Virus record (IMG/VR): IMGVR_UViG_3300042868_008486
Coordinates: 108,810 to 172,809 of that record
DNA: 64,000 nt
Source of the DNA: a virus
Taxonomy: Duplodnaviria; Heunggongvirae; Uroviricota; Caudoviricetes
Reading direction: 5' to 3' (one strand)
Position 1 is the first letter of the stretch, and every line of letters begins with the position of its first letter. A model generated the notes under the pieces. That model made no database searches. It saw nothing but the letters and a program-made list of their open reading frames with translations, and was not told the DNA's origin. The position numbers were made by a program, and so were the translations under genes. Below, piece by piece: positions 2,226 through 41,041 of this stretch.

Positions 2226-2663
2226 TTATCTCCAAGAATCATTAAATTTTGAGGCCTTTTTACCTCTAACTCTGTACATTGCCAATGTTAATATATCCAA
2301 CGCTTCGTGTAGACCTGCTCTGTCATCAATAAAGATGTTAGCATAAATCTTAGCGTGATTACCAAAACCAACATCAATCGGTGTTTCATTTATCCTATCA
2401 ATCTCAAGACCTTTTGATTCACAATAAGTCGTAATTTCAGGATATCTCTCAGGTTTACAAGCGGTGAAGATAACGATATAAGCACCCGTTTCTTTTGCCG
2501 TCTTGAGGGTTTTAATAACGGTGTCGAAATCGAAATCATCCATTCTCCAAGGAGAGATTGTATCATCGAAATCAACCCCAATTATAATCTTCCCGTGTTG
2601 TTCCCATTCGGTTTCCAAACGGTCAACATATTTCATTACTTTTTCATTTAGCATAATCTTCAT
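2226..2663 (-). CDS. HAD-superfamily phosphatase-like protein
   Basis: HAD motif I hhhhDxDxT = IIGVDFDDTIS near N-terminus. 145 aa. Confidence 0.5.
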   Translation of the reverse strand: MKIMLNEKVMKYVDRLETEWEQHGKIIIGVDFDDTISPWRMDDFDFDTVIKTLKTAKETGAYIVIFTACKPERYPEITTYCESKGLEIDRINETPIDVGFGNHAKIYANIFIDDRAGLHEALDILTLAMYRVRGKKASKFNDSWR

Positions 2664-4310: not shown

Positions 4311-4363
4311 ATACTTTTTTTATTTAAAGATAACAATAATAAATTGATTTATCCAACAAAAAA

Positions 4364-4396
4364 CCCTCAATTTTACTTGAGGGTTTGATTTGTTAG
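4364..4396 (-). terminator. rho-independent terminator downstream of NAMPT-family gene
   Basis: Hairpin AAACCCTCAA-TTTTAC-TTGAGGGTTT, with a T-run on the minus strand. Confidence 0.6.
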
Positions 4397-4404
4397 GTGT
4401 TAGG

Positions 4405-5910
4405 TTAAACCGTTTGTGATGCCAATTGTGTTAGACGTTCACGGATATCAGTTAAAGTCGTTTCGTTGTAGAATTCACCATCTTTGTAGATAGTTTTCAA
4501 CTCACCACGTTTTTCTGTGTCCCAACTAACTTTATCAGTTAATTGATACTCACCGAATGCGTCAGTAACACATAATAATCCTGTTGCAGATTTCTTAGTT
4601 CCGTCGTCAGTGATTGGGTCCTTGAAGATTTCTCTTCCTTCACCATTAACCTCAACATAAGTTGCTTTCATCGCGAAACCAAATGTGTCTCTTGTATTGT
4701 ATTGGTATGTGAATGAACCGATACCTAATACTACGTTTGTTGATGCGAATCCTTTCGCCTCCAATCTTTCACAGATTTCATCCGCTCTGTCAATAGTGAT
4801 TGAGTCACCATAGATTGCTCCGATGTGGGGGTCAAGAACTTTGTAACCTTGTTCATTAACTGTTCCTCCGAATACATCCCAAAGTAATTCAATTACTCCT
4901 TTATATTTTGGATGTGTTAAATCTAATTGTGCGTTCTCAACAACATCTCTATAATCTCGAGATATAACTTGTTCTCCACATAAGATATCTACAGGGTTTC
5001 CTGAGTCAGGACGAATAACTAATTTACCATCACGACCTAAGATTTCATCTTTTAATGTTACTAAGTGTTCGGTACATACTTTCCATAAGTCCCAAGTATC
5101 AGATACTACTGATAAGATACCTTTTGGATATGTCTCCAACAATCTTCGGAATGTTTCAATTTCATCTTCTTTACCACCAGCACACATTACTGAGTGTTCT
5201 GTTGCCGGTACTGAACCTCCAACAAATCCTGTTTCATTGTAGAAACGTCTCGCTCCGTAGATTGCTGGTAATGAGTCAGTTCCATTGAATGATGTCAAGT
5301 GACCTAACCCTGATGTGATTGTTGCGTCAGGTGAATCCAAACCTCTCATTGAGAAGTCGTGACCTTGCCACAATACAAACCCAACATTATCTTTATCTGT
5401 TTTCTCAGCCCACTTCGTTAACACTTTTTTGTATGTGTAAGCGATTGTTGCCGATGTCATAGGTTTCCATAACAAGTTTGAGATAATAGTCTCTAAGAAG
5501 TTAGGTAACCAATAGAAGTCAGGTAATGTATTATACACTGTCAATACAGGAACTTTGATTGGAACTAATGTCCCTTCCGTGATTGCTTTAACTGTGATTG
5601 GTAGATAACCCAAGTCGTGTAATTTCTCAATGTGTGTTGTATCATACTCAGTTCCTAAGTACAACGTTAACTCATTTTTGATTTCACGACAAACCGTTTC
5701 TTTCGGTTGATTGAAGAATCCTTCTTGAAAGAAAGAGTGAATGTTTTTCACCATCATTTGTTGTCCAAATGAAACTAATTGGTCACACCCTTTAGGTGCG
5801 TATTTGTTACTTCTTGGTGTGAAGTTTGAATACACTAATGTTGTTCCTTTAGGGTATTGTTCGTGATGCGATGTTTTGTACCCATCCGTTAATAAAAACG
5901 CGTTAATCAT
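4405..5910 (-). CDS. nadV: nicotinamide phosphoribosyltransferase family protein (NadV or Namat-like)
   Basis: 501 aa, NAMPT-like length and motifs (LLTDGYKTSHH, FNGTDSLPAIYGARRFY). Adjacent to a Prs-family gene. Confidence 0.8.
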   Translation of the reverse strand: MINAFLLTDGYKTSHHEQYPKGTTLVYSNFTPRSNKYAPKGCDQLVSFGQQMMVKNIHSFFQEGFFNQPKETVCREIKNELTLYLGTEYDTTHIEKLHDLGYLPITVKAITEGTLVPIKVPVLTVYNTLPDFYWLPNFLETIISNLLWKPMTSATIAYTYKKVLTKWAEKTDKDNVGFVLWQGHDFSMRGLDSPDATITSGLGHLTSFNGTDSLPAIYGARRFYNETGFVGGSVPATEHSVMCAGGKEDEIETFRRLLETYPKGILSVVSDTWDLWKVCTEHLVTLKDEILGRDGKLVIRPDSGNPVDILCGEQVISRDYRDVVENAQLDLTHPKYKGVIELLWDVFGGTVNEQGYKVLDPHIGAIYGDSITIDRADEICERLEAKGFASTNVVLGIGSFTYQYNTRDTFGFAMKATYVEVNGEGREIFKDPITDDGTKKSATGLLCVTDAFGEYQLTDKVSWDTEKRGELKTIYKDGEFYNETTLTDIRERLTQLASQTV

Positions 5911-5929
5911 AAATTATTTATTTTTTGGT

Positions 5930-6085
5930 TTATTGTAATACTTCAATTGAATAGGTTGTTTTCTCATCCCCAATTTCAAGGGTGTGAATTGTAAGTCCAA
6001 AGGATTCTAACACTTCACTAATTTTGTTAACCGTAGAAGCTTTATCACTCCCGTGAACTAGCTCAAATGTTTTTACTTCTTTCAT
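5930..6085 (-). CDS. small hypothetical protein (51 codons, MKEVKTFELVHGSDK...)
   Basis: Fills the gap between the NAMPT-like and Prs-like genes. Below the 60-aa track cutoff. Confidence 0.25.
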   Translation of the reverse strand: MKEVKTFELVHGSDKASTVNKISEVLESFGLTIHTLEIGDEKTTYSIEVLQ

Positions 6086-6103
6086 AATACAATATTAATT
6101 AAA

Positions 6104-7003
6104 TTATTTGAATACATCAAATCTTGTTACAAAATTTTCTACTTCTTCATTACTAATTGAGTTAGTTGTGAATATGTGTTCGAATGAATTTTTCAAATCA
6201 TCAAACCCTCTTGAGAAAATCCCGTGACTAACAATTAAGTAAATTTTGCCTGTGAAGTTTTCATTTTCTTTTATCGCTTTCGCAATATTAAGGAATGTCC
6301 CTCCACCATCACAGATATCATCAACAATGAATAAATCTTTATCCAACACATCATCAGTTAATGGGACAAGTGTTTTAGATAGTTTACCATCAATGTCTCG
6401 GTATTTTGAACATACCAAAACATCCTGATTAGATTTGAATGAGTCGTTAACTGAATACACTTTCTTCAACGCTCCGGCATCAGGTGAAACATAAACAACC
6501 TTAGACATATCACTAATGATTTGACCTGTCATCATCCAATATTTTTGTAACGAACTCCTAACCAAGTCAATGTTACCTGATTTACTGAAGTTTTGAAGAC
6601 AAGCCTCCAACACATCTGAATGGGGGTCAACAACAGTTACCTTGTCAAACCCTTGTAGGTTAATGATTGGGGCAATTACATCTTTAATATAATTCACACT
6701 ACCAATCGAAAACTTACGGTCACTCCTTGCCCCTAAGAAATAGGGAACATAGAGTTCAATTTTTTTAACACCCAAGTTTTTCAATGCTTGATTAGCACAA
6801 ACAATTAACTCAACATCTTTGAAGGAATTCATTCGACTTCTAATCTCAACCCCATCTTTGAAAAACTTCGACACATCATAAAAATCAGTTGGGTCCTGTA
6901 CTATAATATCAATGGATTGTTGTCCGTCAGGGAACTGACTAACTTTATACCTTAATCTACCTGACAATTTGTCAGTGTCTTGTCTTAAATCTAATACTAG
7001 CAT
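6104..7003 (-). CDS. prs: ribose-phosphate pyrophosphokinase family protein (Prs or Adps-like)
   Basis: PRPP-binding loop LFIVDDICDGGGT and VSPDAGALKKV motif. 299 aa. Confidence 0.8.
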   Translation of the reverse strand: MLVLDLRQDTDKLSGRLRYKVSQFPDGQQSIDIIVQDPTDFYDVSKFFKDGVEIRSRMNSFKDVELIVCANQALKNLGVKKIELYVPYFLGARSDRKFSIGSVNYIKDVIAPIINLQGFDKVTVVDPHSDVLEACLQNFSKSGNIDLVRSSLQKYWMMTGQIISDMSKVVYVSPDAGALKKVYSVNDSFKSNQDVLVCSKYRDIDGKLSKTLVPLTDDVLDKDLFIVDDICDGGGTFLNIAKAIKENENFTGKIYLIVSHGIFSRGFDDLKNSFEHIFTTNSISNEEVENFVTRFDVFK

Positions 7004-7006
7004 TTT

Positions 7007-8193: not shown

Positions 8194-8994
8194 TTATTTT
8201 TTTAACTCTTCTAAACAATTTCTTCTCCAATCTGAATGACCAACGTTCAACGGCATACAACCATCTTTTGATTCCATAATTGCCGTCAACTCATATAAGT
8301 CATCATCCAAATGGAATGTGAACCCCATACCTTTTAGGAACTCAATTTTATCAGCAAATTTAGTAAACTTTACTCTACTCTTTGGAATACCAATCCTTTC
8401 ACAACTTTCCCATAAATCCTTATTCCAATCAGGTGATTTCCAAATTTGATGTGGGGGGTCATCATCATCCCCAACTCGTGATGTTACAACCCAAACTTCA
8501 TATCCTTCGTCAACTAATTCTTTAGCGAATTCCTCAACTGAGGGTAACGCCAAAGTACCATCATAATCGAAACTAACTTTAGTTTTACTATTTTTAGTTA
8601 ATTTATGGTGAGTATCGCATAATGTGAAATACCACCCAATATCTTTTCGCATCTCACCAGGTTCACCACATTTTTCACAAACGGTATAACTTTCAGTTTC
8701 CGCCTGTAATATTCGTTGATGAATTTCAGGACTACCGGCATTAATATAAAATCTTAACCCACCAAATTTCTCTTTAACTTGAGTGGTTTCTTTATTCCAA
8801 CCTAATTCAACTAAATCAGTTATCAATGACTTAATCAAACCAAACCACCCATTACCAACACAGAAGAAACCTGGGTCAACTATAGGACCTTTATCGGTAA
8901 AATACCCATTATACAACCCACCAATTGAGTTTAAGTATTCCGACATTTGCTCATCCGATAAATAATAATTTTCCATAGAACAAATATAAAACAT
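8194..8994 (-). CDS. zinc-ribbon plus HAD-like phosphatase domain protein
   Basis: CEKCGEPGE...LCDTHH cysteine/histidine cluster. C-terminal HAD motif KVSFDYDGTLAL. 266 aa. Confidence 0.5.
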   Translation of the reverse strand: MFYICSMENYYLSDEQMSEYLNSIGGLYNGYFTDKGPIVDPGFFCVGNGWFGLIKSLITDLVELGWNKETTQVKEKFGGLRFYINAGSPEIHQRILQAETESYTVCEKCGEPGEMRKDIGWYFTLCDTHHKLTKNSKTKVSFDYDGTLALPSVEEFAKELVDEGYEVWVVTSRVGDDDDPPHQIWKSPDWNKDLWESCERIGIPKSRVKFTKFADKIEFLKGMGFTFHLDDDLYELTAIMESKDGCMPLNVGHSDWRRNCLEELKK

Positions 8995-9038: not shown

Positions 9039-9527
9039 ATGAGCACAACTTCCGAGACTAAAGCTGAAAGAGACCCATTAACACCAAACCAAGTTAAAGG
9101 GATTAATATGGTTATTAAAGGTATTGGTAAAAAATACCCTTACGTTGTTGGGTGGGAAAAAAGTGAGGTATTCGATAAATACCAATCTCAAATGTTTATT
9201 AACTTAATAGTTGATATGACTAAATTTGCAAAATATTATAATTCACCAATTAAATCTTATTGGGTTGATGACTTAATTGAAGGTAGATATGATAGTATTG
9301 GTGGGGCTTTTTATCTTGTAAATTACGATGAAATACGTGATGATGCTTATGAAACAAAAAGAAAACTAGAAAATCGTATTAAAGACATTTATGTATTACT
9401 ACCTAAAGAATTTCAAGTTTTTGTTAAATGGTCAGGTGGTAGTTTTTTGTTACGTGACGATGAAGAATATTATAAATCCGTATCAAGTCTTGATATCCAC
9501 AGTTGTTTTGTTAAAATATTTAACTAA
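9039..9527 (+). CDS. hypothetical protein
   Basis: 162-aa plus-strand ORF diverging from the minus-strand train. AT-rich divergent intergenic region 8995-9038. Confidence 0.5.
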   Translation: MSTTSETKAERDPLTPNQVKGINMVIKGIGKKYPYVVGWEKSEVFDKYQSQMFINLIVDMTKFAKYYNSPIKSYWVDDLIEGRYDSIGGAFYLVNYDEIRDDAYETKRKLENRIKDIYVLLPKEFQVFVKWSGGSFLLRDDEEYYKSVSSLDIHSCFVKIFN

Positions 9528-9543
9528 CTTATTGTTTTAATTA

Positions 9544-9567
9544 GTTGCGGGATAGGATTCGAACCTA
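9544..9567 (-). ncRNA. tRNA-like 3' fragment (T-arm only, no partner acceptor strand found)
   Basis: ATAGG-ATTCGAA-CCTAC T-arm. No complementary 5' acceptor strand within 60-400 nt. Confidence 0.2.
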
Positions 9568-10002
9568 CATCATCGGATACTAACCTCCAATATGTTACCA
9601 CTTACACTACTCCGCTATACTACTGAATCCAATTCAGGTGGACTGAGAAATTGTATCTAAATCGTTTTCTTTTCTCACCTTACCACAGACCTCATATTGT
9701 CGACCATATGATTAATCCTGACTTTAAATAACATAGATAATGGTTCGGCCTTTTATGTCAGTCGCTCGACGTGTTATTACCCCAATATCCCAATTCCGTT
9801 CCCCCTAACTATATTGGGTTCCTTGCACCATACCCTCTAATATTGGAGTATGAGGCTGAACCCTCAAGGATTGGTAGCATCTATTGTTATGTTACTGTCT
9901 GCATTCAGTTCAGTAGTTAATTGTGATGAATCATTTACTCGGTCGCAGCCATACCATTCTTTCAGGTAGGTCCCCCTCGCTCTTATCATCATTGAGCCAC
10001 GT

Positions 10003-10078
10003 AGATAGGACAGGATTCGAACCTGTAACTCAACATCACCAGGACGGTTTCAGTTACCAATTACTATCACCTATCTAT
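10003..10078 (-). tRNA. tRNA-like gene, 76 nt, anticodon not assignable
   Basis: T-arm ACAGG-ATTCGAA-CCTGT. Perfect 7-bp acceptor (agatagg at 10003-10009 against cctatct at 10072-10078). D-loop contains TGG. Anticodon arm does not fold canonically by eye. Confidence 0.4.
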
Positions 10079-10193
10079 ATGTTGAGTTTCTTCATAACGG
10101 TACTCAACAAACCCTGCTTGCCAGTATTACATTTACTAACTACTATTATTCACATTCAATGTAACCCAAAGGTGGTCCGCCGTCATTGGTAGT

Positions 10194-10312
10194 AATCAGG
10201 GTGGGACTTGAACCCACAAGGTAACATTCGGCTTCAAGGCTCTCCTATATACCGTTCATAGGATGCAGTTACCACTTTACTCGTCTTATGCGTCTACCAA
10301 TTCCGCCACCTG
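10194..10312 (-). ncRNA. long tRNA-like RNA, family member a (119 nt)
   Basis: T-arm GTGGG-ACTTGAA-CCCAC. Acceptor AGTCAGG/CCTGATT with one G-U pair. 5' end AGTCAGGTGGCGGAATTGGTAGACGC matches the tRNA-Leu D-arm. Middle is about 35 nt too long for a type-II tRNA. Confidence 0.4.
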
Positions 10313-10444
10313 ACTATTTTTTATAATAACCCTTTATATAAAACGTAATATATAAAAAAACATACTCCAATTGTAATACATATAATAGTTGTTACTTGTG
10401 CTGCAGGATGTAAAGTTTCCATTTTATTTTATTTTAAAGTTAGT

Positions 10445-10519
10445 AGATAGGATTGGATTCGAACCAATGACGCATAATACAAATCAATGTACCCGCTCTG
10501 ACCTCTGAGCTACCCATCT
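10445..10519 (-). tRNA. tRNA-like gene, 75 nt
   Basis: Canonical UAGCUCAGAGGUCAGAGC D-arm. T-arm ATTGG-ATTCGAA-CCAAT. 7-bp acceptor with one G-U pair. Anticodon stem GUACA/UGUAU with a 6-nt loop, which is atypical. Confidence 0.45.
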
Positions 10520-10531
10520 ATATTTTTTTGT

Positions 10532-10640
10532 AGTCAAGACAGGAATCGAACCTGTGTATCATCAAAGTACTTTGATGGTATGTTTATACTTCATACCCTG
10601 CTTTTACCATAAAGGTGTGTGTCTACCATTCCACCACCTG
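10532..10640 (-). ncRNA. long tRNA-like RNA, family member b (109 nt)
   Basis: T-arm ACAGG-AATCGAA-CCTGT. Acceptor AGTCAGG/CTTGACT. Family 5' end AGTCAGGTGGTGGAATGGTAGAC. Confidence 0.4.
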
Positions 10641-10776
10641 ACTATATTTTTTGTTACTCAACCCCTCACGTCCTTTTACTCTTGGGGTTAAAGGTCTTGC
10701 GGACCACCATTACGGATTTATCATACTAGGAAGACGCTCAGTATATAAATCTTGCACCTCTCTGAAGTAACTTGTG

Positions 10777-10846
10777 GCTCAAGTGGGAATCGAACCCACA
10801 CCTTGATTTTTAGAGAATCCTATTCTAACCTTTTAACTATTGAACC
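10777..10846 (-). tRNA. tRNA-like gene, 70 nt
   Basis: T-arm GTGGG-AATCGAA-CCCAC. Acceptor GGTTCAA/TTGAGCC with one G-U pair. Possible anticodon loop UAGGAUU. Confidence 0.35.
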
Positions 10847-10961
10847 AAATTGTGACTGATGGTCGTCTAACACCTCGACTTTCGACTGATACAATTTTAC
10901 GTGTGCCCCACTCGGTCTATTTGTCACTGTCAGTTTTCAATCACAATTCAAATATAAGAAA

Positions 10962-11384
10962 TTATTTCTTTTCAGTCCAAACAATTTTATATTTTTCCCA
11001 ATTATTTTTTATTTCTTCTTGTAATGATTCGGTTAAACCTTTGTTTTCCAACACTTTACCATAGACAAAACTAATCACTCTATTAACACTCTTAAAGTGT
11101 TTAATACTTGTCCATTTCTTACCATAACCATCATAGAAGATACCTGTATAACTTTTAGTTATTAATTGAATGTAATTGTTATCAACTTCATACTTGAACA
11201 GTTCTTTTAATTTAACATCCAAATTATTTCCATCATCATCAATCTTAATGATTAAGATATATTCTTTATCTTCCAATGTTACAGGAATCGCATTCATTAT
11301 TGTTTTATCCTTCTTAAATAAGTGTAATTTTGTTTTATGAAGGTAATTCAATGTGTCTTGTTTAATTTGTTCTATTGTTTTCAT
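10962..11384 (-). CDS. hypothetical protein
   Basis: 140-aa ORF embedded in the tRNA-like array. Confidence 0.5.
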   Translation of the reverse strand: MKTIEQIKQDTLNYLHKTKLHLFKKDKTIMNAIPVTLEDKEYILIIKIDDDGNNLDVKLKELFKYEVDNNYIQLITKSYTGIFYDGYGKKWTSIKHFKSVNRVISFVYGKVLENKGLTESLQEEIKNNWEKYKIVWTEKK

Positions 11385-11385
11385 T

Positions 11386-11568
11386 TTAATTTATTTTAGC
11401 AATTATTTTATTATCCCCATCCGTTTCAATGGTTAACATACCCTTGAGTTTAATACTTCCCTTAGTATGGGGGTTATCGGGAGTTTCCTTAGTTGAAAAT
11501 CCAACACCTGTACTTACATCTACGTGATGAACATAATAAGTGTCTCCTCTACATTTGATTACCCACAT
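11386..11568 (-). CDS. hypothetical protein
   Basis: 60-aa ORF. Confidence 0.4.
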   Translation of the reverse strand: MWVIKCRGDTYYVHHVDVSTGVGFSTKETPDNPHTKGSIKLKGMLTIETDGDNKIIAKIN

Positions 11569-11655
11569 TGGAATTGTTGGGTCTTCAAGATGTTTCTTGT
11601 TAAAATGAAATACAATTTCACATTTTTTGTTAATCTACATCATAACTGTTTGTTT

Positions 11656-11970
11656 TTATTGTTTATTATAATTTTTTAATGCTAATGGTAACGACGCGGT
11701 TAATCGGTTTGTAATCTCATTGGATTCAAACGCAATTGATGTTAATTGATTATTTATGTCAGGTTCATAAAATGATGAAACACTAACATTCAAATCAGTT
11801 AATCGTTCTAATAAAATTTTAAGTTTGTTTTCGGTATCAATGGATAATGAAATAAGAAAATTGTTGTTCCATTGACGGGCTTTCTCAGGATGGTCTAACA
11901 TATACTGAGCAATCGAGTGTCCCGATTGAGCCATTTGATAACCCGGAGTTAAATCTCCTCTTGTTACCAC
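11656..11970 (-). CDS. peptidyl-tRNA hydrolase PTH2-like protein
   Basis: 104 aa. N-terminal VTRGDLTPGYQMAQSGHSIAQYM resembles the PTH2 R-x-DL...G...AQ..HA motif. Confidence 0.45.
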   Translation of the reverse strand: MVTRGDLTPGYQMAQSGHSIAQYMLDHPEKARQWNNNFLISLSIDTENKLKILLERLTDLNVSVSSFYEPDINNQLTSIAFESNEITNRLTASLPLALKNYNKQ

Positions 11971-12031
11971 ATAAAGTTTTTGTATCTAATTGTTTTTCAT
12001 AATAATATAAATATAATCAATAATTTTTTGT

Positions 12032-12229
12032 TGTCAAGAGAGGACTCGAACCTCTATGAATTATAATTGATGTTAGTTGGCACTCTCAGAGAGGATATCG
12101 CTTATTATTTTCATCAACCTTATTGGAATGTATTACGTAACGGCTATTTACCCAACTTGTGTACCGTAATCTTCTGCCCATTCCATTCTAACCGCAGCCG
12201 TTTAGCGTCACCCTTTCCGCCACTTGACT
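12032..12229 (-). ncRNA. long tRNA-like RNA, family member c (about 198 nt)
   Basis: T-arm AGAGG-ACTCGAA-CCTCT at 12039-12055. Family 5' end AGTCAAGTGGCGGAAAGGGTGACGC at 12205-12229. Acceptor 6 of 7. No other T-arm in between. Confidence 0.3.
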
Positions 12230-12384
12230 AAAAATGACTTTACCTTACAAAGTCTAAGTAGGTTTAGTTGAGGACTTTCAAATCTTAATCGTCTATATGA
12301 CTCCTTCCTCTCAGTGTATCGTTTATTTACTCGTCGGGCATAGTATCTGAGTTTTCTGTGTGCTGCCATCACACTTACAATCGT

Positions 12385-12500
12385 AGCCAGAACAAGATTC
12401 GAACTTGTAAGACACAGTAATACAGTACTGCGTCATCCCTGTATGGATATGTGCGTCTACCAACGAGCGAGGACACCCCACTCCATTCCGCCACCTGACT
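12385..12500 (-). ncRNA. long tRNA-like RNA, family member d (116 nt)
   Basis: T-arm ACAAG-ATTCGAA-CTTGT. Acceptor AGTCAGG/TCTGGCT with two G-U pairs. D-region carries an insertion (GGAATGGAGTGGGGTGTCCTCGCTCGTTGGTAGACGC). Confidence 0.35.
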
Positions 12501-12671
12501 AAAAATGTGTGTTTTTAAATTATCCCTAGAACACACAAACTATGCCGACATACGATTCGGAGAGCGTCCACGCCAACATATGTGTAAACCCGAAGGTCTT
12601 TTTATTTCAACCCATATCTGTAATCTCTATCTTCGTTCCTTAGCGGTGCACCACTAGAGGGCTAATTCAGT

Positions 12672-12785
12672 AGTCAGGACAGGACTCGAACCTGTTCGAT
12701 TTCACCGTAGGACGTAACGAGACTGCTACTTTCAGAGTGTTACTATATCCCCTCACCTCTGCGTCTACCCATCCGCCACCTGACT
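12672..12785 (-). ncRNA. long tRNA-like RNA, family member e (114 nt)
   Basis: T-arm ACAGG-ACTCGAA-CCTGT. Perfect 7-bp acceptor AGTCAGG/CCTGACT. 5' end AGTCAGGTGGCGGATGGGTAGACGC. Discriminator A, no encoded CCA. Confidence 0.45.
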
Positions 12786-12867
12786 CGGACTCGAACCGTT
12801 GAAAACACACACCTTTCAGTGCCAACAAAACCCTGACCCCAAAGTTTTATTGTCAGTCGCCAGGGTA

Positions 12868-12977
12868 GGACTCGAACCTACACCCTATGACTTGTACCTC
12901 ACCATAGGGACTTACGTTGTTTTTAAAAGAGTGGTATCACCCCACTGTAGCGTCTAACCAATTCCGCCACCTGACTT
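12868..12977 (-). ncRNA. long tRNA-like RNA, family member f (110 nt)
   Basis: T-arm GTAGG-ACTCGAA-CCTAC. Acceptor 6 of 7. 5' end AGTCAGGTGGCGGAATTGGTTAGACGC. Confidence 0.4.
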
Positions 12978-13062
12978 GTTACTTAGGCGAATATACTCAA
13001 ATGCGGTACACTTAGATTTCCAATTCAATACGCCACTTGTATAAAGAGCCTTATAACCAAAT

Positions 13063-13152
13063 TTGAGGTTGAGAACCTCTGTGTTGTAGTGCTTAAATCT
13101 GTCCACTCATATTCTTGTTTCCTTCTCAAGGGAACAACACAAATAATCAGTC
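13063..13152. repeat. direct repeat copy 1 (GAGGTTGAGAACCTCTGTGTTGTAG ... TTCTCAAGGGAACAACAC)
   Basis: Imperfectly repeated at 13236-13340. Each copy holds the hairpins GAGGTT-GAG-AACCTC and TTCC-TTCTCAAG-GGAA. Confidence 0.6.
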
Positions 13153-13235
13153 GCTCGCTTTAGAGTCAGTCGCCCATTGTATAGCAACGCATATACAAAG
13201 GACAACACAGGAATCTTTGTACCTGTACTGATTAT

Positions 13236-13340
13236 TGTTTGAGGTTGAGAACCTCTGTGTTGTAGGGTACTATTCTCCCTTAACCCTCTTTAGCATCATA
13301 CATTCCTTTCTCAAGGGAACAACACAATAATAAATCCCTG
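13236..13340. repeat. direct repeat copy 2
   Basis: Shares the 25-mer gaggttgagaacctctgtgttgtag and ctttctcaagggaacaacaca with copy 1. Confidence 0.6.
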
Positions 13341-13638
13341 TACTCTCAGTAAGTAATGTTATAGATAGGCCCAAACCCCTATCCTCCGTAGCTCAACTAT
13401 TTATTTCAACCACTCAAATTACCTTATGAGATTTATGTCTATTTCAAGTATATTGTTATAACATCTAACCCCTAAACAACTACACTCTGAATGTGTATAT
13501 CTCCCATACTTCGCTCCCATCCCTATTCTACGATAGGTGAGTCCCATAGCAAAATCTGTTTAGTCATTAGCAGGGGAATAATATTTAAAATGGTGACTAC
13601 TCCCTCAGAGCTACCAACCCGCACCAATGAATTGATAC

Positions 13639-13662
13639 GAGCTAGGGAGGACTCGAACCTCC
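13639..13662 (-). ncRNA. tRNA-like 3' fragment (T-arm GGAGG-ACTCGAA-CCTCC), partner strand not found
   Basis: Canonical T-arm, no complementary 5' acceptor. The 7-mer just before the T-stem (gagctag) recurs directly upstream as gagctac. Confidence 0.2.
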
Positions 13663-13675
13663 AAGTCACCATTTT

Positions 13676-13699
13676 AATCGACATAGGACTTGAACCTAT
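13676..13699 (-). ncRNA. tRNA-like 3' fragment (T-arm ATAGG-ACTTGAA-CCTAT), partner strand not found
   Basis: The 7-mer before the T-stem (aatcgac) is repeated directly at 13733-13739 rather than inverted. Confidence 0.2.
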
Positions 13700-13755
13700 A
13701 CGGGAGCACCTATAACCCTCCAATCGACTATTTAATATTTCAAAGAACTTTTAGA

Positions 13756-13831
13756 ATCTGAGGTGGGAATCGAACCCACACTAAGTCAACCTTTACAGGA
13801 TTTGGAACCACTCCTCATTACGCTCTCAGAT
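13756..13831 (-). tRNA. tRNA-like gene, 76 nt
   Basis: T-arm GTGGG-AATCGAA-CCCAC. Perfect 7-bp acceptor (atctgag / ctcagat). Internal arms not canonical by eye. Confidence 0.4.
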
Positions 13832-38203: not shown

Positions 38204-39163
38204 CTACCAACAAGTAATAATGACTAATCCGTGACCACCGTCACCACCCGCACCACCGGCTGCGTTTTGTGCGGAACCACCTCCACCACCACCACAACCG
38301 TGACCACCATCACCTCCAAATCCACCAACTCTACCCGCAGTACTTGATGACCCACCACCAGCACCACCTGTGTAAAATAATGGCGTATCAGTATTACCAC
38401 CTGAACCATCAACTTGGTCTCCCATTCCGTGACCACCATCAATAACAGTTGCTGAATTTGCGGTTCCACCACTAAGTGTTGGTATAATACCTGTACCTGT
38501 AATGTTACCACCATTCGCAGTTGCACCACCCGCAGAGTTCCCACCACCACTAGCACCCGCAGAAACAGGTGATATTAATGTAATTGAGTTACCCGTACCA
38601 CCACCACTTGAACCACCAACAACTCCGATTTGGCCAGCAACAGGATTTATTTGACCTAACTGAGGAAATATAAATGAAGTTGAGTAAGTCCATATTGTTC
38701 CCGCAGCCCCTGCAGTACCATTAACTGATGTTGTTCCACCACCACCACCTGTTGGGGCGACATTACCATTTTTCATTAATACCGCAGTAGTTCCCGTTGA
38801 GGGGATTACAGAAACATAAGAATGTTCTCCACTACCACCTATTCCACCATTACCATTAACGATACCACCTGTTCCACCGACACCACCTCTACCTACTTGA
38901 ACGAACAATGTGTCAGGTAATAATGACGCAGGAAAAAGTCCTGCCGCGAATGCTGAAGAACCACCTCCACCACCTCCTGTTCCTGAGTTGTTAGTATTTC
39001 CACGACCTCCACCACCGCCAGCACCACCACCTATACATAAAATATAAACGAAAGATGCGTTATTTGGTTTTGACCAAGTTTGCCAAGCAGTTGCTCCTGA
39101 TGAATTAACCCTAAAAACTTGATTACTATTTTCTTTACCGGGTAAGTTAAATATATCTATCAT
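38204..39163 (-). CDS. glycine-rich repeat protein, paralogue 1 (putative fibre/adhesin)
   Basis: Conserved N-terminus MIDIFN...NQVF...WQTW.KP and conserved C-terminus GG.GGDG.VIIT.W. The middle is a G-rich low-complexity region. Confidence 0.6.
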   Translation of the reverse strand: MIDIFNLPGKENSNQVFRVNSSGATAWQTWSKPNNASFVYILCIGGGAGGGGGRGNTNNSGTGGGGGGSSAFAAGLFPASLLPDTLFVQVGRGGVGGTGGIVNGNGGIGGSGEHSYVSVIPSTGTTAVLMKNGNVAPTGGGGGTTSVNGTAGAAGTIWTYSTSFIFPQLGQINPVAGQIGVVGGSSGGGTGNSITLISPVSAGASGGGNSAGGATANGGNITGTGIIPTLSGGTANSATVIDGGHGMGDQVDGSGGNTDTPLFYTGGAGGGSSSTAGRVGGFGGDGGHGCGGGGGGSAQNAAGGAGGDGGHGLVIITCW

Positions 39164-39169
39164 TATTAT

Positions 39170-40114
39170 TTACCAATATGTTATTATGACTAATCCGTCA
39201 CCACCTCTACCACCATTACCACCTTGGTTAGTTATTCCGGCTCCACCGCCACCTCCACCACTACCATAGGCTCCGTGACCTCCTTGTCCACCAGGTCCAC
39301 CATCTGATGAACCACCACCCGCACCTCCTAAGAAAACTAAAGGTTCTGTGGAGTATCCATTAGTGTTCGGGTTAAATGACATATAACCACCACTACCACT
39401 ACCACCCGGTGTTGTGTTAGTAGCTGAACCACCCGCAGGTCCACCTGTCATTGTGGGGATATTACCACCCGCATTTACATTACCTCCCGCTTGAGCAGTC
39501 CCACCATTCATTCCCGCACCCGCAGCACCCGGTGTTGTTATACCACTAATAGTGATTGAATTTGGTATTGGGGTTGTTTGACCTAAAACACCTGGCAAAC
39601 CATCAAATGCGGGTACTAAACTAAATTCTGAGAATATACCTGTAGTTTCACTCCAAAGAGTTCCCGCAGTTCCCGCAGTTCCACCATTTAATCCTGAAGC
39701 ACCACCACCCGCAGCCGCAGTTCCACTTTGATATAAAACATTTGATGCGGTTTTTCCTGTATCAGAAGCTACCAAAACATATGATAATGTTCCTGCCCCA
39801 CCGTTACTGTTAGTTGTCCCACCAATTCCCGCAGAACCACCACCACCAACTTGGATGTGTAGGATTTCAGGTAAGTAACTAGCGGGTACTAAGGCGTTCA
39901 TTCCTGCGGATGAACCACCACTACCACCACCACGTCTAGCGGTCGCAGTTCCAGCACCTTGACCACCACCACCTCCACCTCCACCACCAATTAAGAAGAA
40001 ATGAACGAATTGACAATTTTGAGGTTTAATCCAACTATAGAATGAATTTATTCCATTGGCATAAAAAACTTGTCTGTTTTGACTACCGTCAACTATATTA
40101 AAAATATCTATCAT
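39170..40114 (-). CDS. glycine-rich repeat protein, paralogue 2
   Basis: Same architecture as paralogue 1. Confidence 0.6.
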   Translation of the reverse strand: MIDIFNIVDGSQNRQVFYANGINSFYSWIKPQNCQFVHFFLIGGGGGGGGGQGAGTATARRGGGSGGSSAGMNALVPASYLPEILHIQVGGGGSAGIGGTTNSNGGAGTLSYVLVASDTGKTASNVLYQSGTAAAGGGASGLNGGTAGTAGTLWSETTGIFSEFSLVPAFDGLPGVLGQTTPIPNSITISGITTPGAAGAGMNGGTAQAGGNVNAGGNIPTMTGGPAGGSATNTTPGGSGSGGYMSFNPNTNGYSTEPLVFLGGAGGGSSDGGPGGQGGHGAYGSGGGGGGAGITNQGGNGGRGGDGLVIITYW

Positions 40115-40117
40115 AAT

Positions 40118-41041
40118 TTAAGTAACTGTTACAATAACGAATCCGTCACCACCACGACCACCGATTCCTGCGGTTGAGTTACCTCCGGCTCCTCCACCAC
40201 CTCCACCACAACCGAATGAACCATCACCACCTTTACCTCCAACACCTAATGTTTGTGAAGCCGCACCACCACCAGCACCACCACTAAAGAACATTGGTGT
40301 TTTAAAGTTTGGTCCGATGAAGTTTTCTCTTGTCGCATAACCATTATTACCCGGATTGGCGGTTGCACTCTGAACTGCGGTGTTAGTACCACCTGAAATC
40401 GTTGGGAAATCTAAAATACCCACAATACTTGCAGATGCCCCTAAAGTTCCAACCGAACTACAACCCGCACCACCCGCACCACCTGTGAACGGAATACCTG
40501 ATGGTGTTACGTTAGTTGCGGGAGTACTTGATGACCCACCTATACCACCGGCTTGACCTGCATACGCCGAAACCAAACCAACTTGACCTAATATGATATC
40601 CGCTTGGACAATTATTGTTCCAGCATTTTGAGTTAATGTTGTTCCCGCACCCAATGTTCCACTTTTCATTAATATATTATAACGTGTTGAAATATCAGGA
40701 ATTGAACAAACATAACTTAAACCTCCAACACCACCAGCACCATTACCTGACGCTCCACCAATACCACCACCACCAACTTGAATATATAACATATCGGGTA
40801 AAGTAAAAGCGGGAACGGTTATGTAAGCATACGCGGCAGAACCACCTCCGTTACCGCCACTTCGTGTTGATGCCGCACCTGTCGCCCCACCACGTCCACC
40901 CGCACCACCTCCTACTAAGAAGAAGTTAACGAATTTACAATTAGGTGGTTTAATCCAAGTTTGCCAAGCATCAGTTCCTGCAAAATAAAAAACTTGGTTT
41001 TTTAAACTATTATCATTTATATGATTATAATCTATACCCAT
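40118..41041 (-). CDS. glycine-rich repeat protein, paralogue 3
   Basis: Same architecture, ends GGRGGDGFVIVTVT. Confidence 0.6.
   Translation of the reverse strand: MGIDYNHINDNSLKNQVFYFAGTDAWQTWIKPPNCKFVNFFLVGGGAGGRGGATGAASTRSGGNGGGSAAYAYITVPAFTLPDMLYIQVGGGGIGGASGNGAGGVGGLSYVCSIPDISTRYNILMKSGTLGAGTTLTQNAGTIIVQADIILGQVGLVSAYAGQAGGIGGSSSTPATNVTPSGIPFTGGAGGAGCSSVGTLGASASIVGILDFPTISGGTNTAVQSATANPGNNGYATRENFIGPNFKTPMFFSGGAGGGAASQTLGVGGKGGDGSFGCGGGGGGAGGNSTAGIGGRGGDGFVIVTVT

Follow-up and report, generated by a model that had tools for sequence, protein, structure and literature searches.

The question raised by this locus is whether a NAMPT-like and a Prs-like gene carried close together by a phage encode the two-enzyme NARP1 pathway of NAD+ reconstitution or a Prs-plus-NadV salvage pathway. 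The genes lie in a 64-kb stretch of DNA, hereafter the window, from an uncultivated, large phage (~31% G+C) from freshwater metagenomes, whose host is probably a member of the Bacteroidota, the sole basis for this being a CHU_C-domain gene in a relative. A previous, sequence-only reading favoured NARP1 and held that the two pathways cannot be told apart by eye. We find that published discriminators (clamp motif, scores and trees) do separate them and group both proteins with NARP1, and that the gene pair is, with a probability of roughly 0.85, a NARP1 operon encoding Adps and Namat.

The ORF listing returned three minus-strand ORFs, each with a TAA stop and with limits as previously given, confirming a same-strand pair of 501 and 299 residues with a 51-codon ORF between them. 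In the direction of transcription, the Prs-like gene is followed by the small ORF, the NAMPT-like gene and a terminator-like hairpin:

7003..6104, minus strand: adps, Prs-family gene, 299 aa (ORF with profile, motif and tree evidence)
6085..5930, minus strand: small gene, 51 aa, located between adps and namat (ORF)
5910..4405, minus strand: namat, Nampt-family gene, 501 aa (ORF with structure-sequence match, clamp motifs and tree)
4386..4361, minus strand: intrinsic-terminator-like hairpin, 3' of namat

The hairpin, which corresponds to the terminator noticed earlier behind the pair, starts 18 nt beyond the NAMPT-like stop codon and has a 10-bp stem with a 6-nt loop, plus a T run (sequence AAACCCTCAAGTAAAATTGAGGGTTT, then TTTGTTGG). 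The strand of the gene pair had been left out of the sequence-only reading.

Profile matches far beyond chance bear out the NAMPT and Prs family memberships originally assigned by eye. The NAMPT-like protein matched PF04095 (E=1e-41), NCBIfam PRK09198 (E=1.5e-168) and also, in Pfam, PF18127. Against sequences of solved structures it scored 548 bits (E=1e-163) with the SPbetaL1 Namat crystal sequence (9W5X/9W5W) vs about 220-239 bits with Nampt structures of human, bacterial and other origin, and its identity to SPbetaL1 Namat was 53% vs 32% to KVP40-type NadV. When Namat was used as tblastn query, the scores in the rows sampled from 2,046 phage records appeared bimodal, with NARP1-type rows at 36-55% identity and 318-535 bits and Nampt-type rows (e.g. 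KVP40-like NadV) at no more than 33% identity and 220 bits. A neighbour-joining (NJ) tree of 15 sequences (100 bootstraps) grouped the window protein with the validated SPbetaL1 and FADO Namats at 100% bootstrap. Tree and bimodal BLAST and PDB scores place it outside the Nampt/NARP2 clade and within the Adps-associated clade.

Three elements of the Namat active site could be located:

4687..4719, minus strand: selectivity-clamp helix (SCH) GSFTYQYNTRD, aa 398-408, an exact consensus match
5800..5817, minus strand: selectivity-clamp loop (SCL) PRSNKY, aa 32-37, located by alignment
5194..5196, minus strand: His239, within ATEHS, aligned with the catalytic (autophosphorylated) Nampt histidine

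The Namat-specific SCH consensus is GSX-phi-X-phi-X-phi-TRD with an aromatic residue at motif positions 3 and 7 (PMC12774641), which are F400 and Y404 in the window protein. The helix motif is missing from all four Nampt-type phage enzymes compared, most of which have GMGG(G/A)LLQ at this place and one of which, from CcrBL9, has AAGGGMAT. The SCL supplies the residue that stacks on adenine: its third residue is R, K or Y and, if it is K or Y, the next residue stacks. In the window protein S34-N35-K36-Y37 aligns with T-S-R40-V of SPbetaL1, where R40 is the stacking residue, and K36 followed by Y37 reproduces the Lys-then-aromatic arrangement known from Bas63-type Namats. The loop is identical in sequence to that of FADO Namat and 3-5 residues longer than in the compared Nampt-type enzymes; judged at the level of sequence, it is predicted to provide the stacking residue. 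Of the 20 residues through which SPbetaL1 Namat contacts NAD+, 18 are identical, and the two conservative replacements (R40->K36 and A362->S370) are both present in FADO, a phage with a validated NARP1. The catalytic core is likewise kept: F186, D212 and R300 match SPbetaL1 F189, D215 and R306, and H239 matches the catalytic His, whose role in Nampt-fold enzymes is stated in PMC12774641. Relative to the SPbetaL1 and FADO enzymes, the window Namat has about 14 extra residues inserted behind aa 310.

The Prs-like protein matched TIGR01251 (E=3e-29) and phrog_619 (E=1e-56). Its TIGR01251 score of 101.9 bits lies under the cut-off of 113 and close to those of the validated Adps proteins of SPbetaL1 (106) and FADO (96.5), while E. 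coli Prs reaches 423 bits; for Av-05 and phi 3, whose Adps homologues are uncharacterised, the scores are 147 and 115 bits. Eleven curated Prs models were matched, each with a score under its cut-off, the ten further models giving 47-84 bits against cut-offs of 296-536; E. coli Prs scores 423-533 bits on its two best models. The following motifs were located in the protein:

6611..6628, minus strand: DPHSDV motif of Adps, aa 126-131 (DLHAxQ in canonical Prs)
6404..6406, minus strand: Lys200 of Adps, aligned with active-site K162 of SPbetaL1 Adps
6296..6322, minus strand: ribose-phosphate (PRPP-type) binding loop DDICDGGGT, aa 228-236, located by alignment

In an alignment of 23 sequences, comprising 21 phage Adps-like proteins and two gammaproteobacterial Prs proteins as outgroup, PHS occurs in 20 of the 21 phage proteins (P0029, a member of the window family, has HHS) and PHSDV in 18, and the E. 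coli and Acinetobacter Prs proteins have LHAEQ/LHADQ. Lys200 occupies a position invariant in 23/23 sequences, and its counterpart is essential in SPbetaL1 Adps, where K162A abolished NARP1 activity (Osterman et al.). The binding loop, which the sequence-only reading had described as intact and whose loss would have spoken against NARP1, is intact on alignment; DDICDGGxT is common to 17/21 phage proteins, with variants in SPbetaL1, FADO, ICP1 and cr85_1, unlike the DDM(I/V)DT(G/A)GT of Prs. A flexible loop K-x-R-D-x-(x)-G-K-L is likewise common to the window and phage Adps proteins and not to Prs. Pairwise BLAST scores with SPbetaL1 Adps (60 bits) and E. coli Prs (64 bits) were almost equal, and phrog_619 scores E. 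coli Prs and the window Adps at 193 bits each and hence does not discriminate. Given this divergence, the window Adps is placed by its motifs, its profile-score patterns, synteny and the NJ tree of the same 23 sequences, in which the window family (100% bootstrap) is nested among phage Adps; no Adps structure exists that would pinpoint the ADPR-binding residues. Taken as sequence evidence, these features assign the protein to the phage Adps clade and not to cellular Prs. The comparison with Adps/Namat and Prs/NadV proposed together with the original reading (profiles, PDB sequences and NJ trees) thus leaves both proteins outside the Prs and NadV groups.

Genomic context points the same way. 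The genes adps and namat stand in the usual order and are one small gene apart; Namat is found within 10 genes of 97% of Adps-clade genes (Osterman et al.), and a Namat-type gene lies near every examined relative of the window Adps. Relatives L009, L011, L016, L031 and L032 retain the pairing. The pair is variably present in otherwise syntenic phages, L033 and L035 lacking both genes, and this is the pattern expected of accessory counter-defence genes.

[quoted passage not shown] The adenine clamp would make Namat prefer ADPR-PP over PRPP. Together, the two enzymes would convert ADPR and nicotinamide, which NAD+-depleting defences of the SIR2, TIR and SEFIR types release, back to NAD+, and the phage could thereby continue replication in hosts with such abortive-infection systems.

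The same chemistry might mainly serve housekeeping, recycling ADPR and nicotinamide from the phage's own NAD+-consuming enzymes. At 6-10 kb past the window start, near-identical contigs encode a SIR2-family protein (237 aa, PF02146 E=5e-38), a Nudix protein and a nucleoside 2-deoxyribosyltransferase-like protein, and in more distant relatives a NADAR gene sits between adps and namat. The SIR2 gene, however, lies beyond the window and its activity is only predicted; NARP1 acted as counter-defence in every experimentally tested case, its intermediates being produced only under an active defence system (Osterman et al.), and adps and namat are missing from syntenic L033 and L035. We regard a primarily housekeeping role as unlikely.

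Less probable still is a classical, NARP2-like salvage, in which the Prs-like protein would supply PRPP, the NAMPT-like protein would form NMN, and a host or unseen phage NMN adenylyltransferase (NMNAT) would complete NAD+. Both proteins do belong to the Prs and Nampt superfamilies, the near-equal BLAST scores given above cannot separate the Prs-like protein from E. coli Prs, and the window covers 64 kb with the remainder of the genome outside view. Moreover, Namat enzymes keep measurable PRPP-dependent NMN synthesis (PMC12774641; Osterman et al.), so the window Namat may produce NMN as well. Against this stand the exact clamp motif that the compared Nampt-type phage enzymes lack, the gap in structure-sequence scores, and the sub-threshold Prs scores of a protein without DLHAxQ and DTGGT; in addition, SPbetaL1 Adps gave no product in a control assay for Prs-type activity (Osterman et al.). 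The claim that the window holds no NMNAT or Nudix gene also stands for these 64 kb by both Pfam and tblastn. Pfam searches of 87 further window ORFs, mostly at least 80 aa long, returned no CTP_transf_like (PF01467), NUDIX (PF00293), Macro, RyR or SIR2 domain, and PF01467 and PF00293 were missing from both enzyme genes in a separate Pfam scan that covered these and the 51-aa ORF. When the window was searched by tblastn with phage NMNAT-type queries (the CcrBL9 NadM-Nudix protein and a BcepSauron protein annotated only as adenylyltransferase) and with Nudix, Macro and SIR2 queries, nothing better than E=0.06 was obtained, and no NMNAT was found within ~10 kb past the window start in near-identical contigs. 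A 75%-identical relative encodes a cytidylyltransferase-like protein of 136 aa about 4.6 kb downstream of namat, which matches the heptose-1-phosphate adenylyltransferase family (E=9e-37) vs the NMNAT family at E=0.0015. NARP1 and NARP2 are not known to occur together in the same genome.

That adps and namat are left over from a transferred cassette and are decaying or no longer active, as the variable presence of the cassette among relatives and the divergence of Adps might suggest, is very improbable, since both frames are full length, every checked catalytic and ligand-contact residue is intact, Namat is 93-99% and Adps 75-100% identical to its counterparts in relatives, and the Adps family is large (5,421 matches at E<=1e-5).

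The 51-codon ORF, whose position between the enzyme genes agrees with the sequence-only reading, is not a spacer but a real gene under purifying selection. A search with its product returned 24 protein clusters, most of which are 76-94% identical and 19 of which have a length of exactly 51 aa, and dN/dS was 0.07-0.21. The gene is kept in the syntenic contigs L033, L034 and L035, all of which lack adps and namat (an absence double-checked by tblastn/blastn for L033 and L035), and for this reason we assign it to the phage backbone; it is probably not a NARP1 component. The ORF had no Pfam match, and a fold search with its AF2 model (beta-alpha-beta-beta, pLDDT 82.6) gave no significant match.

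A further gene of the window deserves mention:

2226..2663, minus strand: cap-less HAD-type phosphatase, 145 aa, with DFDDTI at aa 31-36 (phrog_1238, E=4e-22)

The family phrog_1238 is usually mis-annotated as 'phosphoheptose isomerase'. In five unrelated lineages a homologue adjoins adps and/or namat or lies one or two genes away; these are Bacillus Bastillevirinae (Megatron), crAss-like phages (cr111_1, cr126_1, DAC15/17), the T5-like Vibrio phage VPT02, the freshwater contig L011 and Lak megaphages. In VPT02 the HAD gene lies between adps and namat, the position held in Vibrio phage phi 3 by the presumed Macro-type phosphatase gene. Two features of the window gene speak against such an association here: it lies outside the operon, 1.7 kb downstream of namat and beyond a terminator, and it is kept in relatives without NARP1. 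We offer as a tentative suggestion that the HAD protein is a candidate second, undescribed class of NARP1-associated phosphatase, which may act analogously to the Macro-domain Adpp of NARP1-AP in converting a phosphorylated ADP-ribose derivative to ADPR for Adps. Candidate substrates would be ADPR-1''-phosphate, from aRES-type defences, and the ring-opened product of ADPR-cyclic phosphate.

With this operon NARP1 extends to a lineage of large, uncultivated freshwater phages of low G+C content, whose Adps has thousands of metagenomic relatives, and this suggests a role for NAD+-depleting defences, and for the pathway that counters them, in such environmental phage-host systems too. It also illustrates that sequence alone, through the published Namat clamp motif, is enough to tell NARP1 and NadV-type salvage apart. 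Close relatives with and without adps and namat form a natural contrast for gain and loss of such genes, and the HAD-phosphatase gene that recurs nearby gives a concrete starting point for extending the pathway.

Among known systems, E. coli Prs (class I) shares with the window Adps the fold family (PF14572/PF00156), the motifs R-x-D-R, SPD-x-G and DD-x-x-D-x-G-x-T and the flexible-loop Lys. It is 26% identical, and the window protein has DPHSDV for DLHAEQ and DGGGT for DTGGT, its flexible loop differs, and at the C-terminus it ends about 35-40 residues earlier. With DPHSDVLEAC instead of DLHAxQ(I/V)QGFF, DDICDGGGT instead of DD(M/I)xDT(G/A)GT and scores under the cut-offs, canonical Prs was rejected. 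NARP2 (KVP40 NadV plus NatV) likewise uses a Nampt-superfamily enzyme to restore NAD+ during phage infection, but KVP40-type NadV gives only 210 bits against the window Namat and has no adenine clamp, and its partner is an NMNAT-Nudix gene, whereas that of the window Namat is a Prs-family gene. NARP2 was rejected because the clamp is present, the protein lies outside the Nampt clade and no NMNAT occurs in the window. NARP1-AP of the Vibrio phages Gary and phi 3 (Adps, Macro-domain phosphatase Adpp, Namat) also has a third gene in the middle. The middle-gene protein of phi 3, presumed to be a Macro-type Adpp, matched solely phrog_335 'phosphatase' and gave E=6 in tblastn of the window. The window middle gene, in contrast, encodes 51 aa without a Macro domain and is kept in relatives without NARP1; since no Macro gene was found in the window by Pfam or tblastn either, the operon is not NARP1-AP.

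The closest cultured-phage relative of the window Adps is that of Leptolyngbya phage Lbo-JY46 (44% identity, same subfamily, 100% bootstrap), whose Namat is 47% identical and has the same SCH motif; in that phage the order is the opposite one, namat preceding adps with two genes in between. The uncharacterised Lbo-JY46 pair is mis-annotated as PrsA and PncB. The Bacillus phages SPbetaL1 and FADO (Osterman et al. 2024; PMC12774641) likewise carry two genes, adps then namat, with a one-base overlap or a 37-nt gap, unlike the window pair with its unrelated 51-aa gene in between. Their Namats are 52-53% identical to the window Namat with identical SCH motif residues (GIGSFTYQYNTRDTFGFA), and their Adps proteins share the catalytic Lys and the PHSDV motif, although identity between the SPbetaL1 and window Adps proteins is low, about 33% in a local alignment that is partial. 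The window operon leaves the known working of NARP1 unchanged and is a further example of this known system, not a new system.

The locus lies in an extended series of minus-strand genes with a G+C content of about 31%. An ORF scan and a hairpin search bore out, at exact coordinates, the arrangement that the sequence-only reading had described, namely a Prs-like gene, a 51-codon ORF and a NAMPT-like gene followed by a terminator:

Features of the locus (window positions)
7003..6104, minus strand: Prs-like gene, adps, 299 aa (ORF scan)
6085..5930, minus strand: small ORF, 51 aa (ORF scan)
5910..4405, minus strand: NAMPT-like gene, namat, 501 aa (ORF scan)
4386..4361, minus strand: terminator-like hairpin (stem 10 bp, loop 6 nt) plus a T run, 18 nt past the namat stop codon

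All three genes end in TAA, and the intact loop DDICDGGGT previously noticed in the Prs-like protein is present at residues 228–236. The transcription unit probably starts past the divergent gene at 9039–9527, with a 266-aa gene (8194–8994, minus strand) as its first member; no convincing promoter was found for the NARP1 unit, and a sigma-70-type scan gave no enrichment. The 266-aa protein, which leads the co-directional block holding NARP1, has no Pfam match. Its C-terminal half carries a HAD-like FDYDGT motif with weak matches to phrog_4919 and phrog_1238, and is 47% identical to the product of a stand-alone 133-aa gene of the freshwater contig L011.

NARP1 is defined by a Prs-family enzyme, Adps, that pyrophosphorylates ADPR and a Nampt-family enzyme, Namat, that joins ADPR-PP and nicotinamide; the Adps clade is almost confined to phages, and for 97% of Adps genes a Namat gene lies no more than 10 genes away (Osterman et al., bioRxiv 10.1101/2024.02.11.579819). 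Nampt-type enzymes belong to a clade of their own, 94% of whose phages also encode Nmnat (the NARP2 pathway), and no case of both pathways in one phage was found (Osterman et al., bioRxiv 10.1101/2024.02.11.579819). We interpret the locus, as was originally proposed, as a NARP1 operon, with a probability of roughly 85% on the sequence evidence. In it an intact adps precedes an intact namat, with the terminator at the end; the products have the clade and motif membership of NARP1 enzymes, and their catalytic and specificity residues are conserved. This reading is supported by the Namat clamp motifs, structure scores, Adps profile scores and motifs, and neighbour-joining trees. In HMM and clade comparison both proteins fall on the Adps/Namat side, the Adps somewhat less certainly, and the remaining doubt about the NARP1 reading comes in part from this divergent Adps.

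The NAMPT-like protein scores far above chance with PF04095 (E=1e-41), PF18127 (E=2e-8) and NCBIfam PRK09198 (E=1.5e-168). Its top matches among solved structures are the entries of Namat from the Bacillus phage SPbetaL1 (E=1e-163, 548 bits), followed by a third chain, which bears the name Nampt, at 464 bits, and by human and other Nampt structures at about 220–239 bits. Among the phage-genome matches sampled, the scores fell into two groups: one of 36–55% identity and 318–535 bits, with proteins of SPbetaL1, FADO, Felixounavirus, ICP1, Staphylococcus phages and mycobacteriophages, and one not exceeding 33% identity or 220 bits, which includes the KVP40-like NadV.

The SPbetaL1 Namat structure (9W5X/9W5W) was solved by Lan et al. 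(PMC12774641), who attribute the specificity of Namat for ADPR-PP to a two-part 'selectivity clamp' made up of a helix motif, GSX-phi-X-phi-X-phi-TRD, in which the X residues are aromatic, and a variable beta1–beta2 loop giving an extra stacking residue. The window protein matches the helix motif exactly (GSFTYQYNTRD, residues 398–408), and its clamp loop, PRSNKY (residues 32–37), shows no differences from that of the Namat of FADO, a phage whose NARP1 was validated by deletion. Within this loop the counterpart of the stacking R40 of SPbetaL1 is K36, and with Y37 as the next residue the loop shows the Lys-then-aromatic pattern reported for Bas63-type Namats. Further, of the 20 NAD+-contacting residues of the SPbetaL1 crystal structure, all are identical except for R40→K and A362→S, both of which also occur in FADO Namat, and the catalytic histidine is kept as H239. 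In contrast, of the four Nampt-type phage enzymes compared (KVP40-like, Klebsiella, BcepSauron and CcrBL9), three have GMGG(G/A)LLQ at the site of the helix motif and CcrBL9 has AAGGGMAT, and in all four the clamp loop is 3–5 residues shorter. The KVP40-like representative was nadV of phage phi-pp2; the 380-aa gene upstream of it, which had no PHROG match, was not accepted as NatV. Neighbour-joining analysis places the window protein together with the Namats of SPbetaL1 and FADO, with 100% bootstrap support. As judged from these sequence comparisons, the NAMPT-like protein is a Namat.

The Prs-like protein is, somewhat less certainly, a predicted Adps. It exceeds the cut-offs of PF14572 and PF00156 only slightly and lies under the curated cut-off of every NCBIfam Prs model, the best being TIGR01251 (E=3e-29; 101.9 bits vs. 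a cut-off of 113). With the same model the validated Adps proteins of SPbetaL1 and FADO score 106 and 96.5 bits, the uncharacterised Adps homologues of Av-05 and Vibrio phage phi 3 score 147 and 115 bits, and E. coli Prs scores 423 bits. In a 23-sequence alignment the window protein has traits of most or all phage Adps that Prs lacks: DPHSDV where Prs has DLHAEQ, a flexible loop of the form K-x-R-D-x-(x)-G-K-L instead of KRRP-x-AN, DDICDGGxT instead of DDM(I/V)DT(G/A)GT at the phosphate-binding loop, and a shorter C-terminus. K200 corresponds to the catalytic residue K162 of SPbetaL1 Adps, a lysine.

In a neighbour-joining tree with a narrow outgroup of two Prs, from E. coli and Acinetobacter, the window family forms a group at 100% bootstrap and is nested within phage Adps, the SPbetaL1/FADO and mycobacteriophage proteins diverging deeper. 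The second outgroup member is the one near-canonical Prs (69% identity) among the sampled phage matches of a tblastn search with E. coli Prs; its contig, named 'Acinetobacter phage MD-2021a', looks bacterial, as this Prs adjoins tRNA-Gln genes and rplY. A genome-contig scan with E. coli Prs for a wider outgroup did not improve the tree, as all the Prs that it yielded were gammaproteobacterial and at least 80% identical. Two other measures were set aside for placing the Adps: pairwise BLAST, uninformative at near-equal scores (60 bits to SPbetaL1 Adps vs. 64 bits to E. coli Prs), and phrog_619 membership, for which E. coli Prs and the window protein each score 193 bits. This PHROG family of phage Adps carries the annotation 'ribose-phosphate pyrophosphokinase', and phage Adps and Namat appear in public annotations almost always under misleading Prs, NadV or PncB names. 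No Adps structure was found for comparison with the window protein.

The absence of an NMNAT/Nudix gene from the window, noted in the sequence-only reading, held up: no CTP_transf_like, NUDIX, Macro, RyR or SIR2 domain turned up in a Pfam scan of 87 further window ORFs, and the best E was 0.06 when the window was searched by tblastn with Nudix, Macro and SIR2 proteins and with NMNAT-type proteins, one of which is annotated NMNAT-Nudix. No NMNAT was present either in the approximately 10 kb past the window start, as seen in near-identical contigs. A 136-aa cytidylyltransferase-like gene of the 75%-identical relative L009 was ruled out as a hidden NMNAT by its better match to phrog_7878, a heptose-1-phosphate adenylyltransferase family (E=9e-37 vs. 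E=0.0015 for an NMNAT family), and has no counterpart in the window. Beyond window position 1, a few kb downstream of NARP1, the near-identical contigs carry an NAD+/ADPR-related cluster (L016:11450–15560, L017:5353–10769, L018:2005–7235) of nucleoside 2-deoxyribosyltransferase-like, Nudix (or DUF2452), SIR2-family and DUF3307 genes, and the phage itself may consume or sense NAD+. The SIR2-family gene encodes 237 aa (PF02146, E=5e-38).

By analogy with characterised homologues, the Adps would catalyse ATP-dependent pyrophosphorylation of ADPR and the Namat would convert ADPR-PP and nicotinamide to NAD+, so that the pair would refill NAD+ after its cleavage by SIR2-, TIR- or SEFIR-type defences.

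By its conservation, the 51-aa ORF (5930–6085, minus strand) is a real gene. It returned 24 protein clusters, mostly of 76–94% identity; the length is exactly 51 aa in 19 of these clusters, and dN/dS is 0.07–0.21. Its predicted beta-alpha-beta-beta fold (pLDDT 82.6) had no significant structural match (best Foldseek E=0.06), and the only sequence match, to ACT_6, was weak and not significant (E=0.07). A role as NARP1 component or regulator was rejected, and the gene is not NARP1-specific, because it is retained in syntenic relatives that lack NARP1. In three such contigs (L033, L034 and L035) the window gene order is preserved, the 51-aa gene comes straight after an 85-aa gene, and adps and namat are absent; flanking genes in L033 and L035 reach 95% protein identity to the window. 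The DNA alignment with L035 stops at window position 7004, immediately ahead of the first adps base, and restarts at 6097, 12 nt upstream of the 51-aa ORF; a second gap runs from 5936, where the alignment ends, to 4371, where it restarts. From these breakpoints, adps and namat therefore behave as two gene-precise insertions or deletions flanking a backbone gene. L033–L035 carry glycosyltransferase and metallophosphatase genes at the place of namat in the window, and L016 has such genes after namat in addition to adps and namat. Cumulatively, the region 4371–7004 is a hot spot of gene-sized variable accessory modules. Variable accessory regions are common for counter-defence genes.

Since NARP1 already occurs in about 4% of sequenced phages, the locus is a further example of a known system, and the main points of note are its uncultivated freshwater lineage, the variable presence of adps and namat around a conserved small gene and the HAD-phosphatase lead. 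Megablast of the locus against phage genomes gave no match, and no close sequenced relative of the phage is apparent; the nearest cultured-phage relative is Leptolyngbya phage Lbo-JY46 (44% identity for Adps, 47% for Namat). The window Adps has 5,421 matches at E≤1e-5 among predicted proteins of public genomes and metagenomes, and a Namat-type gene lies near adps in every relative whose neighbourhood was inspected. The two genes are adjacent, or separated by the same 51-aa gene, in five contigs (L009, L010, L013, L016 and L032), separated by DUF3307 and HAD genes in L011, and separated by 8–14 small genes, including a NADAR gene, in L031 and a 345-kb ENA contig. The NADAR gene of L031 (14273–14752) encodes an ADP-ribose-related domain, PF08719.

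Other products encoded in the window (41–64 kb) are SmpB, DnaJ, a sigma-70 factor, two DNA methylases, thioredoxin/glutaredoxin-like proteins and an SbcC-like protein; SmpB, DnaJ, the sigma-70 factor, the methylases, the thioredoxins and a tRNA cluster fit a large phage. A PHROG search with the ten largest window ORFs found almost nothing recognisable; the lineage is one of poorly charted large phages, and the host may belong to the Bacteroidota, to judge from a CHU_C-domain gene that one relative carries. In the tRNA cluster (9544–13831, minus strand) ARAGORN identified a tRNA-Tyr, an anticodon-CTA tRNA that would read amber UAG, and two odd tRNA-like genes with anticodon loops of 4 nt and 2 nt. 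A suppressor tRNA or stop-codon recoding is possible; TAG ends 2 of 55 minus-strand ORFs, TAA 42 and TGA 11. The sole G+C-rich stretch (0.39–0.45 vs. about 0.31) holds three tandem ORFs of 319, 314 and 307 aa (38204–41041, minus strand), whose products are probably the three with matches to Pfam Gly_rich_2.

The most novel side observation concerns a 145-aa protein (2226–2663, minus strand), a minimal cap-less HAD-type phosphatase with DFDDTI and DDR motifs that matches phrog_1238 (E=4e-22), a family usually annotated 'phosphoheptose isomerase'. In five phage lineages that are unrelated to one another, its homologues adjoin adps and/or namat or stand 1–2 genes away; loci of the family on comparison contigs are L011:9317–9751, L038:4481–4912, L039:3462–3911, L040:3504–3896 and L041:6001–6408.

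Gene order at loci with HAD homologues
Bacillus phage Megatron: Adps–Namat–HAD
Seven further Bacillus phages: HAD adjoins Namat (coordinate cross-match)
crAss-like cr111_1: Namat–HAD–Adps
crAss-like cr126_1, DAC15 and DAC17: HAD adjoins Namat
Vibrio phage VPT02: Adps–HAD–Namat
Freshwater contig L011: Adps–DUF3307–HAD–Namat
Lak megaphages: HAD, then an Adps-like gene

In the Prevotella Lak megaphages the HAD-like gene lies directly upstream of the Adps-like gene (L041:6001–7256, L042:6001–7226), whose product shares 25% identity with the window Adps (E about 1e-19), and the 6 kb on each side showed no Namat. In the window's own lineage the link is loose, the HAD gene lying 1.7 kb downstream of namat, beyond the terminator, and being kept in relatives that lack NARP1. 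We found no mention of a HAD phosphatase linked to NARP1 in the literature searched; the NARP1 literature examined describes only a Macro-type phosphatase. The slot that the HAD gene occupies between adps and namat in VPT02 is the one held in Vibrio phage phi 3 by what is presumably a Macro-type phosphatase, a middle-gene product that matched only phrog_335 'phosphatase', and the HAD family may represent a second type of NARP1-associated phosphatase.
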